From Promethearchaeota archaeon (lineage in GTDB: Archaea; Asgardarchaeota; Lokiarchaeia; Sigyniarchaeales; SOKP01), in assembly GCA_048941385.1 (NCBI GenBank), contig JBHLNR010000002.1:1506-65505 (forward strand): 64,000 nt of DNA, written 5' to 3'. The translations under genes and the position numbers were made by a program. Below the pieces are notes generated by a model. That model saw only the letters and a list, made by a program, of their open reading frames with translations. It did no database searches and was not told the origin of the DNA. This document shows, piece by piece, positions 53,398 to 57,165 of the stretch (positions within the stretch are counted from its first letter, which is position 1; each line of letters opens with the position of its first letter).

Positions 53398-54105
53398 ATG
53401 AAAGAAGCTAAGATATTAAGGGATCATCATCATATTGTAAAATATTCCGAAGATCAATGGGCCATATTAAAACAAAAAAGAGCGAATGCTATAAAACTAT
53501 TAGAAATATTCGTTAAAGAAGGGTTTAAACCAATCGTTTATGGGAGTGTTGCTCGCGGGGATGTGCATAAATCTAGTGATATCGACATCATCTTTATTCA
53601 AACAATTCCCTCATTCCAAATTGAATATATCCTAAATAAAAATGGTTATGATAACTATTTTAGAGAAATTATTATGGCAACACCCCTAGATTCAATCAAA
53701 TTATACATTCATTTAAGTGAACTTGAGAGTATTACGGTTCCTCTTTCAAAGCTTGATAGAAATGTTTATGAATTCTATAATTTTGGGGGTAGTATATCCT
53801 TAAACGATCTCAAATCAGAACACCGAGTAACAGGTATAGATAAAAGACTTGTATTAATTAGGCCTAATAAGTATGGGCATGAAGAAACTTCTATCATTGG
53901 AAATGAAGCTCTTGCTGCTAAAGAAGTGGGTGTCAGTATCGACGCTGTAAATGAGCGTAAGAGAGTATTACTTAGAAGAGAACAACACGGAAGAACAGGA
54001 GTCTTCCTAAAAAGGAATCTCCAAATGCATGAATCCACAGAGGAAGTATTGAAAAATCTTGCTAAAAGAAAGGCTATTGTAAGAAAAAAGTTACTAAAAT
54101 CATGA
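53398..54105 (+). CDS. Pol-beta-superfamily nucleotidyltransferase domain protein
   Basis: YGSVARGDVHKSSDIDI is the GS-x9-DxD minimal NTase motif. Its stop overlaps the next gene's start (ATGA at 54102-54105). Confidence 0.65.
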   Translation: MKEAKILRDHHHIVKYSEDQWAILKQKRANAIKLLEIFVKEGFKPIVYGSVARGDVHKSSDIDIIFIQTIPSFQIEYILNKNGYDNYFREIIMATPLDSIKLYIHLSELESITVPLSKLDRNVYEFYNFGGSISLNDLKSEHRVTGIDKRLVLIRPNKYGHEETSIIGNEALAAKEVGVSIDAVNERKRVLLRREQHGRTGVFLKRNLQMHESTEEVLKNLAKRKAIVRKKLLKS

Positions 54106-55253
54106 AAAAAGCAAAATTAATTACTACAAAAGAAGAAAATGTCTTTATAAAAGGAAGAGGTCTTCCTAAAGGCTGTAAGCTATGTTTAAAAGGTCAAAAA
54201 GCAGTCTTATTTTTAAATGGGATTTGTCAAAAGCCTAATTATTGCTCTTGGTATTGCCCTATTTCATCAGAAAGGAGAGGAAAAGATGCAACCTTCGCAA
54301 ATGAGATTGAAATTACTTCAAAAGAGGATTTGTTAGAAGAGATTAATAAGATAGATGCTAAAGGAATGAGTATTACTGGTGGTGAACCTCTTTCTGAATT
54401 AAATTTGGAGAAAACTCTTGAATATATTAAATATATTAAAGCTAAAAAAAGCCACAGGTTTCATATCCATCTTTACACCAATGGTATTACCTTTAATGAA
54501 GCAATCGCTAGTAAACTGGCTATAGCAGGATTAGATGAGATTAGATTTCACGCGTCTAAAGATTATTGGTCTAATATTGAATTCACTTTGAATAAGGGTA
54601 TAATAGTTGGATCAGAAGTCCCTGTCATTCCTAATAAAGAGAATCTTAAAGAGCTTCATGAATTAATCCTCCATCTGGACAGGATTGGAGTAGACTTTAT
54701 CAATTTAAATGAATTTGAATATTGCTTTCCTAATAGTGAATCTTTAAAGACAAGGGGATTTCAATTAAAAAAAGGATCTATAGCATCAGTGGTAAATAGT
54801 CATGAAACTGCAATTGAGACAATAAAAGAATTAGGGAATAAGGTATCTATCAAAATGCACTTCTGCCCTATTCGTTCAAAAGACTATTATCAGTTAAGAA
54901 ATAGATACATTAGACGAGCTAAAAATGTAAAATTACCTTTTGAGGTGATTTCTGAGGAAGGGCTTCTAATCTTTGCCCAGGTTGAAGGGATTGAGGAGGA
55001 TGTAGAGAAGTTAAAAAGGTTTTTATTAACAGAAATGAAGGTTGATGAAAATCTTCTATTATTAGAGGAAGAAACCTTAAAAATGCCTTTTTATCTCGCA
55101 ATAGATGACCAAATTATATCTATAATTGACAAATTACGACTAAAAGCATATATAATTGAAATGACTCCATTTAGAAAGAAAAAGTATCAGCAGATAACAG
55201 AAAAAACTCCCTTAAAATTATTTAAAGAGGAATTTGGATTAAATGAAGATTGA
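54102..55253 (+). CDS. Radical SAM domain protein (non-standard Cys spacing)
   Basis: The ITGGEPLSE SAM-binding motif and TIM-barrel-like pattern are present. The Cys cluster is CQKPNYCSWYC, not CxxxCxxC. It overlaps both neighbours. Confidence 0.55.
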   Translation: MKKAKLITTKEENVFIKGRGLPKGCKLCLKGQKAVLFLNGICQKPNYCSWYCPISSERRGKDATFANEIEITSKEDLLEEINKIDAKGMSITGGEPLSELNLEKTLEYIKYIKAKKSHRFHIHLYTNGITFNEAIASKLAIAGLDEIRFHASKDYWSNIEFTLNKGIIVGSEVPVIPNKENLKELHELILHLDRIGVDFINLNEFEYCFPNSESLKTRGFQLKKGSIASVVNSHETAIETIKELGNKVSIKMHFCPIRSKDYYQLRNRYIRRAKNVKLPFEVISEEGLLIFAQVEGIEEDVEKLKRFLLTEMKVDENLLLLEEETLKMPFYLAIDDQIISIIDKLRLKAYIIEMTPFRKKKYQQITEKTPLKLFKEEFGLNED

Positions 55254-55692
55254 AGATGTTACCTTTACGGATTTAAAAAATATTATGATCCTTGAAATTG
55301 AATTATTCGGAGAAAATGCATTTACTAGGCAATTAATGGAAGAATTAATACGCCACAACACCTTTTTTTTAAAGCTAGTTGATGATACAAGCAAAAATGA
55401 AATAATTGGGTTTATTATTGCTATTCGAGATAAAATCGATAGGATCAATATTATTAATTTCCTCATAGACCCAAACTTTCAAAACAAAGGATATGGAGCA
55501 CTTCTACTGCAAAACATCATTGAAAGAATAAAACAAATAAAAGAGGTTAAAAAAGTAGTTTTAAATGTTCAAGTAAGTAATACAGCAGCAATTAAATTGT
55601 ATGAGAAATTTAATTTCAAAAAAAATCCTAATGAACTTACTAATTATTATCCATCTGGGGAAAACGCGTATTTCATGGAATTAGAAATCTGA
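55243..55692 (+). CDS. rimI: GNAT N-acetyltransferase (RimI / Ard1-like protein N-terminal acetyltransferase)
   Basis: 149 aa with the acetyl-CoA motif A QNKGYGALLLQ and the beta-bulge region VVLNVQVSNTAAIKLYEKFNF. Confidence 0.8.
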   Translation: MKIEDVTFTDLKNIMILEIELFGENAFTRQLMEELIRHNTFFLKLVDDTSKNEIIGFIIAIRDKIDRINIINFLIDPNFQNKGYGALLLQNIIERIKQIKEVKKVVLNVQVSNTAAIKLYEKFNFKKNPNELTNYYPSGENAYFMELEI

Positions 55693-55770
55693 GTTTTACT
55701 TTACTAAGAATTTATAAATAAATTCTATTATAATATGGATAAATATCAATATTAATTATTTCAAATCAAT

Positions 55771-55778
55771 TTTAAATA
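55771..55778 (+). promoter_or_regulatory. TATA-like box upstream of the 51-codon ORF
   Basis: TTTAAATA is centred about 22 nt upstream of the GTG at 55796, which would imply a leaderless or very short-leader transcript. Confidence 0.25.
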
Positions 55779-55795
55779 AAAGGGGTTGATAATAA

Positions 55796-55951
55796 GTGGC
55801 ACCTATTGATAAAGATCTTCAAGATGAAATTAAGAAAGGCGTTTCACTCACTAAAGTTGATGAAGCTGATCTTCGCAGGAGGGAAGAAGAAAAGAAGAAA
55901 CGCATGGAAGAATTAGAAAAAGTAAAAGCAGCTTTAGGACAAAAAGAATAA
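55796..55951 (+). CDS. Unannotated 51-aa ORF with a WH2-like (actin-monomer-binding) motif
   Basis: GTG start directly after an in-frame TAA, with AGGGG 11-15 nt upstream and T-runs downstream. The product is VAPIDKDLQDEIKKGVSLTKVDEADLRRREEEKKKRMEELEKVKAALGQKE. Confidence 0.35.
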   Translation: MAPIDKDLQDEIKKGVSLTKVDEADLRRREEEKKKRMEELEKVKAALGQKE

Positions 55952-55971: not shown

Positions 55972-55994
55972 TTATTTTTTATCTATTTTTATTT
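55972..55994 (+). terminator. Oligo-T terminator-like tracts after the 51-codon ORF
   Basis: TTATTTTTTATCTATTTTTATTT lies 20-45 nt after the stop codon. Confidence 0.25.
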
Positions 55995-56082
55995 CTATTG
56001 TTTTAAATCAATCTCATTTTAAATTAAATTAAGCTTATCTAAGATTTTAGATTAATTTTAATTAGCAATTAATTGGAGATAG

Positions 56083-57165
56083 TTGTATTATTTGAAAATA
56101 CTAAAAATCGATCAGAAACTAAGAGAGATAATTGTAAAGCCCGAAAATCTTAATGATTTATGGACTCTTTATAATATTATAAGTGAGGGAGATGAGGTCT
56201 CTGCTCGTACACAGAGAAGGGTAATATTAAAAGAAGGTTCCACGGGTGAAAGAAAAGTAATGAATTTGAAATTAAAAGTTGAATCAATTTCTTTTCATGA
56301 GTTTTCAAATCGATTAAGAGTAAAAGGAAAGATTCTAGAAGGACCTGATGATTTTATCAGCTATGGTTCGTACCATACTTTTAACATTGAACCATTACTA
56401 AAAATCAGGATAATCAAAGAAAAATGGTCAAATTATGAAATAAAACGACTCAAGGAAAGTTCAAAGTTTGAAAAGAACTTTATTATTTTAATTATAGCAA
56501 TAGAAACAGGTCTAGCAACAATTAGTCTTGTTACTAACTTTAGTCATAAAAGGATTGCGACTATTAAATCACACGTACCAGGAAAGAGATACCAACAAAC
56601 TTATCGCAATAAGGCACTACTAGAATTCTATGAAGGAATAGGGAATATAGTAAAGGAAAATATTAAAGCTCATAATGTGAATATAATAATTATTTGCGGT
56701 CCAGGGAATATAAAAGATTATTTTATTGATTATTTAAGAGAAAATCTTGATCCAGGTTATTCACCGAGAATAGAAAGCTGTCATGCAAGTTCAGGGACAG
56801 AAAGTGCAATTCTAGAGACCTTAAAATCTAAAAAGTTAGCAAAATTAAAAAAAGAAGTTAAAGCTTTACAGGAAACCGAATTGATTGAAAATGTTCTTTC
56901 CCAATTCGCCCTTGATGCAGATCTTATTGTAATAGGATTAGATGAGGTTTTTGAAGCTTCTGAAAGGGGGGCAATTGAACAACTCCTTATAGCTGATACA
57001 ATGATTCGGGGAACGTCAAAGGATCATAAGTTAAAAATTGAAGAGATAATAACTAACGTGGAGAATACAGGAGGCTTCATAACCATTATGAGTACTGAAA
57101 ATGTTGCTGGAGAACAATTGGTAAATTTAGGATCATTAGTTGGGATTTTACGATATAAATTATAG
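56083..57165 (+). CDS. pelA: Pelota (Dom34 homologue, ribosome rescue / no-go decay)
   Basis: 360 aa with the N-terminal VKPENLNDLWTLYNIISEGDEVSARTQRRV Sm-like domain and eRF1-like domains 2 and 3. The start is TTG. Confidence 0.9.
   Translation: MYYLKILKIDQKLREIIVKPENLNDLWTLYNIISEGDEVSARTQRRVILKEGSTGERKVMNLKLKVESISFHEFSNRLRVKGKILEGPDDFISYGSYHTFNIEPLLKIRIIKEKWSNYEIKRLKESSKFEKNFIILIIAIETGLATISLVTNFSHKRIATIKSHVPGKRYQQTYRNKALLEFYEGIGNIVKENIKAHNVNIIIICGPGNIKDYFIDYLRENLDPGYSPRIESCHASSGTESAILETLKSKKLAKLKKEVKALQETELIENVLSQFALDADLIVIGLDEVFEASERGAIEQLLIADTMIRGTSKDHKLKIEEIITNVENTGGFITIMSTENVAGEQLVNLGSLVGILRYKL

Follow-up and report, generated by a model that had tools for sequence, protein, structure and literature searches.

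A 51-residue micro-protein of Asgard archaea, proposed stand-alone form of a module that resembles WH2 and is elsewhere fused to profilin

The present analysis concerns a 51-codon open reading frame (ORF) at positions 55796..55951 (+) of a 64,000-nucleotide stretch of contig JBHLNR010000002.1 from a Promethearchaeota archaeon, the whole of which we call the window. The ORF encodes a micro-protein of 51 amino acids (aa) and is unambiguously a real gene under strong selection. We propose that the micro-protein is the stand-alone form of a module of about 45 residues which is specific to Asgard archaea and which, judged from its sequence relationships, is probably an actin regulator not yet described in archaea. 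That the module has some role in the actin/profilin system we consider likely. That it binds actin, through the half which resembles the eukaryotic WH2 domain, is a view based on analogy to which we incline.

The coding sequence begins with a GTG at 55796, directly abutted by an in-frame TAA (55793-55795), and ends with a TAA at 55949-55951. It lies in a 390-nt gap between a gene for a GNAT acetyltransferase (55243-55692) and pelota (56083-57165), both of which are backed by Pfam. Its product, M/VAPIDKDLQDEIKKGVSLTKVDEADLRRREEEKKKRMEELEKVKAALGQKE, has a mass of 5.95 kDa and a net charge of 0, as computed from the sequence, and the motif L8...V21 is encoded by nucleotides 55817-55858. The window holds a single copy of the module and no profilin, both of which were searched for over its 64 kb. 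This layout had been given correctly in the original prediction, including the gap, the translation, the position of the motif, the stop before the GTG, the AGGGG at 55781-55785 and the T-runs after the stop codon. Its description of the ORF as unannotated was mistaken, since homologues are already called as 'hypothetical protein' in many metagenome-assembled genomes (MAGs) of NCBI and JGI.

A homology search returned more than 150 such hypothetical proteins of about 50 aa (48-51 aa), without a Pfam domain, at 70-96% identity and with E-values down to 1e-21; the mean column identity in a 39-member alignment is 83%. The ORF is intact in all 25 of the 25 syntenic loci, and the position of its start is fixed while ATG, GTG and TTG interchange there. 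The ratio of nonsynonymous to synonymous differences by the Nei-Gojobori method (pN/pS) is 0.18 and the median ratio of the substitution rates (dN/dS) is 0.11. Invariant residues are written with many synonymous codons, six for R29, five for R36 and four each for G15, L40 and G48. Across 24 loci the micro-protein, with 66-90% identity, is the best conserved of the three neighbours, ahead of pelota (58-84%) and GNAT (38-69%). The ORF, its frame and the motif positions are thus kept in relatives with the substitution pattern of purifying selection, which was the check proposed together with the original prediction. It is because of this conservation that the ORF is significant, and not because of its motif. 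When all six frames of the window are translated, the bare motif L...I..G..L.KV is found a single time, where 0.015 occurrences would be expected; this is a chance rate of about one match per genome of 4-5 Mb, so that the motif by itself is not significant.

Every homologue that bears an organism name comes from an Asgard MAG, assigned to Promethearchaeota or to Loki-, Thor-, Hod-, Hermod-, Heimdall- or Sigynarchaeota, and, as far as the sources are named, the family is confined to actin-bearing Asgard archaea. We also searched a profile exhaustively against 1.84 billion representatives, and this search, which defined a broad family, gave 53 hits at E <= 1e-3. Most of these are proteins of 47-60 aa, among them divergent ones with a canonical LKKV (e.g. 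ELKNAIKGGAALKKVDE... and LMNEIQQGVKLKKVD...).

Does the module also occur as a part of larger proteins? Several such relatives were found, and all are from Asgard MAGs where the source is named. Tandem arrays (P0124, of 497 aa with about 9-10 modules, P0165 and P0167) hold 4-10 modules with a period of 46-50 aa and with starts of the form ΦΦxxI (LLGEI, LMDEI, IMSEI, VLDEI). In P0144, P0153, P0170 and the fragment P0159, a profilin-like domain is followed by 1-4 modules and a small C-terminal domain. P0166 and P0169 combine a leucine-rich repeat (LRR) region and the module with a ribbon-helix-helix (RHH)-like or Zn-ribbon segment, and P0173 joins an RHH-like domain to the module. A profile of the stand-alone proteins finds the arrays and fusions. 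Conversely, when the embedded modules alone went into the profile, the stand-alone family was recovered from 5.8 billion proteins with E = 3e-11 to 3e-7, and the homology is therefore reciprocal. This second search, limited by its word index, gave stand-alone proteins only and no further fusion partners. WH2 domains, too, occur in tandem and next to other actin-binding or regulatory domains, and tandem arrays and LRR fusions are architectures typical of eukaryotic and bacterial WH2 proteins.

Of the evidence that links the module to the biology of actin monomers, the fusion to profilin is the strongest, and it does not depend on the motif. Over almost its full length, the Pfam Profilin model matches both P0144 (E=2.5e-4) and P0153 (E=1.5e-3), below the gathering score. 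The N-terminal domains of these two proteins and of P0170 were combined into a profile, which in the PDB matched crystallised Asgard profilins significantly: 5zza_P (5.2e-13), 5yed_A/5yee (8e-12), 5zzb_A (2.3e-11) and 7pbh_A (5.8e-11), with no further PDB match below E=0.3. The depositors of 7pbh_A named it 'Profilin', and we take 5zza, 5yed/5yee, 5zzb and 7pbh to be the Loki, Odin and Heimdall profilins crystallised by Akil & Robinson 2018 and Survery et al. 2021. An AlphaFold2 (AF2) model of P0153 made without an alignment was unusable (predicted local distance difference test score, pLDDT, 43), and the assignment as profilin was settled by the PDB profile search. A homologue search with P0153 as query found only P0153 itself. 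Three clusters with mutual identities below 50%, from NCBI, JGI, ENA and Logan assemblies, contain the fusion; since the clusters are diverged and the assembly sources several, it is no assembly artefact.

Two further features of the multi-domain proteins may be mentioned here. P0144, P0153, P0170 and P0159 (e.g. L025:8001-9164, L031:8001-8909) share a conserved C-terminal domain, about 50 aa in length (..ITIKAKFxTDYIYDDFQLLKxKxxIExLIKKEF..), which has no Pfam match and is predicted to fold as beta-alpha-beta. The RHH in the LRR and RHH-like fusions P0166, P0169 and P0173 (L033:188-1465) is DUF6290/NikA-like. These fusions could link the sensing of actin monomers to DNA binding (compare MRTF/RPEL), or could be read as an argument against an exclusive role in actin biology.

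The module consists of two halves. The WH2-like half, residues 4-22 (55805..55861, +), comprises the helix IDKDLQDEIKK, the helix-capping G15 and the extended V-S-L18-T-K20-V21-D22. Residues 23-50 (55862..55945, +) form the second half, a long charged helix of ER/K-like composition which is indicated by AF2 and by the conserved columns. Five residues of this half, I12, K14, G15, L18 and K20, never vary in the close family, and V21 does so hardly or not at all; position 8 is L or M and position 19 is variable (T/Q/E/S/D/K). The C-terminal helix carries the conserved signature R29, E32, K33, K35, R36-M37-E38-E39-L40, K42, K44 and G48. In the broad family G15, L18, R36, E39 and L40 remain invariant, and in the fusion and array modules the R of 'KR' is the sole invariant residue. 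The AF2 model of the micro-protein, run with the family alignment, has an overall pLDDT of 88.7. It predicts helices at residues 6-14 and 23-50, the latter with pLDDT 94-95 and in keeping with the charged helix that had been claimed to follow the motif. Between them lies a non-helical stretch, GVSLTKVD at 15-22, and the WH2-like half has pLDDT 85-87. The first helix would have about three turns and is amphipathic, with a hydrophobic moment of 0.57 and a stripe I/V4-L/M8-I12, as the N-terminal helix of a WH2 domain has its hydrophobic residues. An extended motif of the LKK[TV] type follows it at a fixed spacing and aligns without gaps with those of N-WASP, MIM and WAVE. The second helix is of the charged ER/K type with a narrow hydrophobic face (M37, L40, V43, L47). 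A stand-alone peptide of about 5 kDa with helices on both sides of its LTKV is also the plan of the beta-thymosins, with which the likeness would be one of architecture only.

How specific is the resemblance to WH2? Searched against the PDB, the close-family profile gave six hits, among them an N-WASP construct with three WH2 repeats (E=1.8e-3) and a MIM WH2 peptide (E=0.62). The broad-family profile placed the same N-WASP construct first (E=1.2e-4), Spire-DDD second (6.6e-3) and N-WASP 2vcp fourth, and the N-WASP and Spire matches align gap-free on profile positions 6-23. The profile of the reversed sequences, identical in composition, gave one PDB hit at E=5.7 and no WH2 chain. With the broad-family profile (A2), 0-1 of 2000 self-shuffles reached the real score for N-WASP V1 and V2, MIM and WIP, and 8 of 2000 did so for a partial Spire-D, a result that carries a selection bias, as most of these WH2 peptides had been found by the same profile. 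With another profile (A1), WAVE1 was the best-scoring WH2 sequence tested (17.7 bits) and WASP had 8.2 bits, and no shuffle out of 2000 reached either score. Thymosin-beta4 had 2.6-4.0 bits, reached by 110-140 of 2000 shuffles (the sequences of WAVE1, WASP and thymosin-beta4 were entered by hand). Since WAVE1 and WASP beat their shuffles and thymosin-beta4 does not, the spacing appears to be of the WASP/WAVE type and not of the beta-thymosin type. The Pfam Thymosin model (PF01290) has no hit in the window protein or in the family members either, and the epithet 'thymosin-like' given to the ORF earlier fits its size only. In hhalign comparisons, the family matched a small WH2 alignment with P = 4e-5 to 4e-4 and a probability of 34-70%, and an independent alignment of the fusion modules gave P = 2e-4 to 8e-4, while the reversed control had P = 0.2-0.25 and a probability of 0.2-0.3%.

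A number of other proteins and domains turned up in these searches. Nothing meaningful came from Pfam and NCBIfam scans of the window protein. A 21-residue match to aEF-1beta (1gh8), with E = 0.07-0.19, we took as chance and used as a yardstick of noise. DUF3006 (10 of the 37 family members), NPM1-C and the H-NS N-terminal domain gave sub-threshold matches of the composition type, which we rejected, and the resemblances to RPEL and TMA7 that we had considered were dropped, as their spacing differs or they had no Pfam or PDB hit. We also found a protein of 169 aa, P0163, with three repeats of the form '..EIKKGxxLKKTxSVDKSxP..', which the family profile matches at a library-wide E=9e-5. Its sole PDB matches are the WH2 peptides of N-WASP and WIP, and Pfam WH2 recognises it weakly (E=0.2). 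The protein is encoded at L034:256-765 and L035:17-526, on metagenomic contigs of 539-774 bp, and its repeats look like WH2 of the actobindin/beta-thymosin type.

Several observations weigh against an actin-binding, WH2-type reading of the module. Pfam WH2 (PF02205), the first check that had been suggested for the ORF, gives no match in the window protein even with a cut-off of E<=10. It touches 2 of the 37 family members with a best E=0.007, which is below the curated gathering threshold of 23.1 bits, and by its sequence the micro-protein is formally outside the Pfam WH2 family. The hhalign probabilities, 24-70% overall, are no proof of homology. Single WH2 repeats reach 9-14 bits, and the unrelated fold aEF-1beta reaches 15 bits by chance; de-novo TIM barrels are also among the PDB matches of the profile. 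The best-conserved part of the protein is its C-terminal helix (R-x6-RMEEL), which is foreign to WH2 domains. G15 is not invariant in the fusion modules, the first K of LKKV is unconserved, and where 'LL' has its second hydrophobic residue the stand-alone proteins carry a polar one (Q, K or E), whereas this position is hydrophobic in the array modules. Some of the fusions are to RHH-like DNA-binding or Zn-ribbon domains, as described above. A Foldseek search of the 51-aa model against the PDB had no hits, but a helical peptide of this size is too small for that to be informative. Genes for actin, profilin or gelsolin adjoin none of the family members examined. Finally, a look for expression, proteomic or binding data found none that could be linked to the protein; the proteins of the L. 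ossiferum proteome and co-immunoprecipitation go by private locus identifiers to which no sequences are attached. Taken together, a specific resemblance to WH2 beyond composition appears supportive but weak. The WH2 reading of the original prediction therefore stands in part: the conserved motif positions, the profile and shuffle tests and the AF2 layout speak for it, but PF02205 stays below threshold and single repeats score at the level of noise. Likewise, in the comparison with shuffled controls, real WH2 peptides beat their own shuffles and the reversed profile finds nothing, but single repeats come close to the aEF-1beta noise.

Could the micro-protein instead be a generic charged-helix or coiled-coil adaptor, of the ER/K or dimerisation type and with no link to actin, which serves for example in translation and ribosome rescue or as a nucleic-acid or protein chaperone? 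Its K/E-rich composition with an E3K3R pattern, typical of ER/K helices, would suit such a role, and so would the GNAT-ORF-pelota order fixed in 24 loci, the weak matches to aEF-1beta, DUF3006 and the H-NS N-terminal coiled coil, and the fusions to RHH-like and Zn-ribbon domains. However, the adjacency to pelota and GNAT is lineage-specific and the gene has its own promoter and terminator. The Pfam alternatives lie far below threshold, and the reversed profile, with the same composition, finds nothing. A spacer would not give 83% column identity, the invariant G15, L18, K20 and R36-L40 and a dN/dS of 0.11, and the fusion to profilin would be hard to explain. We regard an adaptor without a link to actin as unlikely.

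Is it possible that the module belongs to the same actin/profilin pathway but has another ligand? It might bind another cytoskeletal component, or profilin itself, as a substitute for the poly-proline ligands that are not used by Loki profilins. Its WH2-like spacing would then be a convergent feature of a short amphipathic helix with a turn after it. The fusion to profilin proves a functional linkage and not the identity of the ligand, the highest conservation is in the C-terminal helix, and the statistics of the WH2 match are marginal, all of which such an explanation could accommodate. Nevertheless, the WH2 likeness depends on the order of the residues and recurs in three independent alignments, and the tandem arrays and LRR fusions mirror known WH2 architectures, and we find a different ligand in the same pathway decidedly improbable. 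As for a chance ORF with a chance motif in AT-rich intergenic DNA, the rate at which the bare motif is expected in a six-frame translation (about once per 4-5 Mb) and the non-ATG start would allow it, but the more than 150 homologues, the intact loci, the low dN/dS, the four to six synonymous codons at invariant residues, the conserved promoter, Shine-Dalgarno element and terminator and a conservation beyond that of the flanking genes refute it, and we give it virtually no credence.

Returning to actin binding through the WH2-like half, how could so small a protein act? From the observed gene, the selection on it, the architecture of the module, its resemblance to WH2 and the profilin fusion, we infer the following outline of actin binding, of its site and of a sequestering or nucleating activity. 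The ORF would encode a 6-kDa cytosolic micro-protein. In its module, an amphipathic helix of three turns, a Gly cap and an extended L-x-K-V/P-D stretch make up the WH2-like half, which is followed by an ER/K-type helix with a conserved EKxKRxEEL. Its LxKV segment would run up the face of subdomain 1 of actin, as do eukaryotic WH2 domains and the LKKT-like linker of Asgard gelsolins. The second helix may make extra contacts towards subdomains 2 and 4, on the pointed face, so that the protein would act as a thymosin-like sequesterer or buffer of monomers; alternatively, it may be a rigid spacer. Paralogues with several modules might line up several actin monomers and would then be candidate nucleators or elongation factors, comparable to Spire, Cobl, VopL and leiomodin. 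We speculate that a 28-residue helix (about 4.2 nm) together with an extended segment of eight residues approximates one long-pitch actin subunit spacing (5.5 nm), in which case the arrays could line up monomers at that distance. Profilin and WH2 domains have overlapping sites on the barbed face of the actin monomer, so that a protein of profilin and n modules would bind n+1 monomers, in the geometry of a nucleator. Perhaps the stand-alone buffer, the nucleating arrays and the profilin-WH2 fusions even form an Asgard toolkit of the WH2 type that is homologous to, and older than, eukaryotic WH2; this we hold to be possible yet doubtful.

We propose, from the signals around it, that the micro-protein gene is a complete, monocistronic transcription unit of its own. 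A block with a TFB recognition element (BRE) and a TATA box, AAGAATTTATAAATAAATTCTATTATAATAT, lies at 55706..55736 (+), with the TATA core at 55711-55720. In 14 diverged loci that were aligned, this block (AAACTTATAAATAAATTCTATTATAAT, 55706-55736) is near-invariant while the flanking intergenic DNA is variable, and in all 18 of the loci compared it starts 81-89 nt before the initiation codon. Judging from the usual archaeal distance between the TATA box and the transcription start, transcription would begin at about 55738-55743, which predicts a leader of roughly 55 nt. The TTTAAATA box at 55771-55778, which had been proposed earlier as the TATA box, is not the promoter: by the same spacing it could not drive a transcript that contains the Shine-Dalgarno element, because it lies only 4 nt before it. 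This Shine-Dalgarno-like element, GGGG at 55782..55785 (+) and mostly GGTG in relatives, is located 11-14 nt before the start codon, and aaaGGTGtt or aaaGGGGtt is found at a constant distance from the start in 13 of 18 loci. Oligo-T tracts at 55972..56004 (+), including T6 at 55975-55980 and T5 at 55986-55990, form a putative archaeal intrinsic terminator, and T-runs of at least five within about 50 nt of the stop codon occur in 18 of 18 loci. A scan for bacterial-type hairpin terminators found none, as expected for archaea, and we set aside the scan for sigma-70 promoters and hairpin terminators as not applicable to them.

The gene order RtcB-x-CutA1-x-NTP-transferase-radical SAM-GNAT-ORF-pelota-radical SAM-x-x-Elf1 is fixed in the 24 loci that were fetched. 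Orthologues labelled Hodarchaeota or Sigynarchaeota have MoxR-AAA/VWA genes upstream and a longin-like gene and BtpA downstream, and both flanking genes are on the opposite strand. The linkage to translation genes is therefore not family-wide, being present in the 24 syntenic loci and missing from the Hod- and Sigyn-labelled orthologues and from all contexts of paralogues; as a lineage-specific feature, the adjacency to pelota and GNAT is uninformative on function, and we dropped it as a functional clue. Cytoskeletal neighbours were not found in the contexts of P0124, P0144, P0153 and P0166.

Some side observations were made on these neighbourhoods. In the window, the genes upstream of the micro-protein overlap, an NTP-transferase-like gene (53398-54105), a radical SAM gene (54102-55253) and GNAT (55243-55692), by 4 and 11 nt, which points to an operon with translational coupling whose end lies directly ahead of the promoter of the micro-protein gene. 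The mechanical ORF of pelota from the TTG at 56083 has 360 aa and the called orthologues have 357 aa; translation may really begin three codons further on, with the TTG at 56092. Just downstream of the micro-protein gene in Hod- and Sigyn-labelled loci there is a conserved, convergent and unannotated gene of 128-131 aa (L026:7178-7564 and L028:7259-7654, both on the minus strand), with Arf/Roc-type GTPase genes close by. We considered this gene as a profilin and rejected it, as it is weakly longin-like instead (Fuz_longin_1 E=0.012, Sybindin E=0.089). The full Asgard gene order RtcB...GNAT-small ORF-pelota...Elf1 also occurs on contig DATKTW010000134.1 (L021, 1-16153), in a MAG labelled 'Candidatus Nanopelagicaceae bacterium', an actinobacterial family; this is almost certainly a mis-binned Asgard contig. 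Lastly, MAGs labelled Heimdall-, Thor-, Hermod- and Hodarchaeota (L001-L008 and L019; GCA_0488xxxxx/0489xxxxx, JBHL*) match the window in the order of 12 genes and in gene lengths, with proteins that are 55-90% identical. Unless this block is extraordinarily stable, the phylum labels must be unreliable.

In the full texts of the Asgard and lokiactin literature that we searched, neither a stand-alone WH2-type protein nor an Asgard actin nucleator is described. The earlier statement that a WH2 or thymosin-like binder has not been reported from archaea agrees with this search, in which the sole WH2-like element was a four-residue motif in gelsolin linkers. The Asgard actin regulators described so far are profilins and gelsolins only (J Cell Sci review, PMC12050087). 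Neither a nucleator nor a peptide dedicated to the buffering of monomers is known among them. If our proposal is correct, the module would be a third class, present as a micro-protein, in tandem arrays and in fusion with profilin, and it would offer concrete candidates for the nucleation of lokiactin and the sequestration of its monomers. WH2-type recognition of actin, or a striking convergence on WH2, would then predate eukaryogenesis. Were the toolkit described above also real, templated nucleation of actin would have existed before eukaryogenesis, and before the Arp2/3 activators and formins. Apart from actin, the case shows that micro-proteins below the usual ORF cut-offs can rank among the best-conserved genes of Asgard genomes.

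How does the module compare with known actin regulators? The beta-thymosins (thymosin-beta4, ciboulot, actobindin; PF01290) are, like the micro-protein, conserved, charged, stand-alone proteins of 5-6 kDa with an N-terminal helix, a motif of the LKKT type and a C-terminal helix, and they are a plausible functional analogue if it serves as a buffer of G-actin. In contrast, the spacing from the helix to the LKKT is off by one residue, and thymosin-beta4 fails to score better than shuffles. The C-terminal helix of thymosin-beta4 has about 10 residues and follows a long linker, whereas the 28 residues of the micro-protein start right after LxKVD. A second comparison is offered by the Asgard two-domain gelsolins, for which crystal structures show a WH2-like 'LKKT' linker (LRRV, LKHV, LVDV, LKDV) that extends up the face of actin (PMC9433394; bioRxiv 10.1101/2025.11.30.690169). 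The same surface of actin is thus in use in the Asgard lineage, which makes the proposed contact feasible. The linker, however, is a four-residue motif between two gelsolin domains and has no preceding WH2 helix, whereas the micro-protein family is autonomous and contains no gelsolin domain.

The tandem, LRR + module and profilin + module architectures of the Asgard paralogues, which lie outside the window, recall Spire, Cordon-bleu, VopL/VopF and leiomodin (LRR + WH2). There is no sequence relationship to these proteins beyond the short motif, and the Asgard arrays have a period of 46-50 aa with a helical spacer instead of short flexible linkers. We know of no direct fusion of profilin and WH2 in eukaryotes. 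Closest of all is the eukaryotic WH2 domain of the WASP/WAVE type (PF02205), which shares with the Asgard module an amphipathic helix of about three turns, the Gly, the L-x3-I-x2-G-x2-L-x-K-V spacing and the acidic residues after it, as well as the occurrence in tandem arrays and the placement beside other actin-binding domains. On the other hand, the Asgard module is archaeal, about 45 aa long and has an obligatory conserved C-terminal helix (EKxKRxEEL), and its stand-alone family lacks recognition by Pfam, a conserved second 'L' and a conserved first K of 'LKKV'. Because the Pfam test failed and the second helix is foreign to WH2, we set it apart from that family and prefer to speak of a WH2-like module, one for which the sequences are compatible with homology to WH2 and with convergence on it alike.

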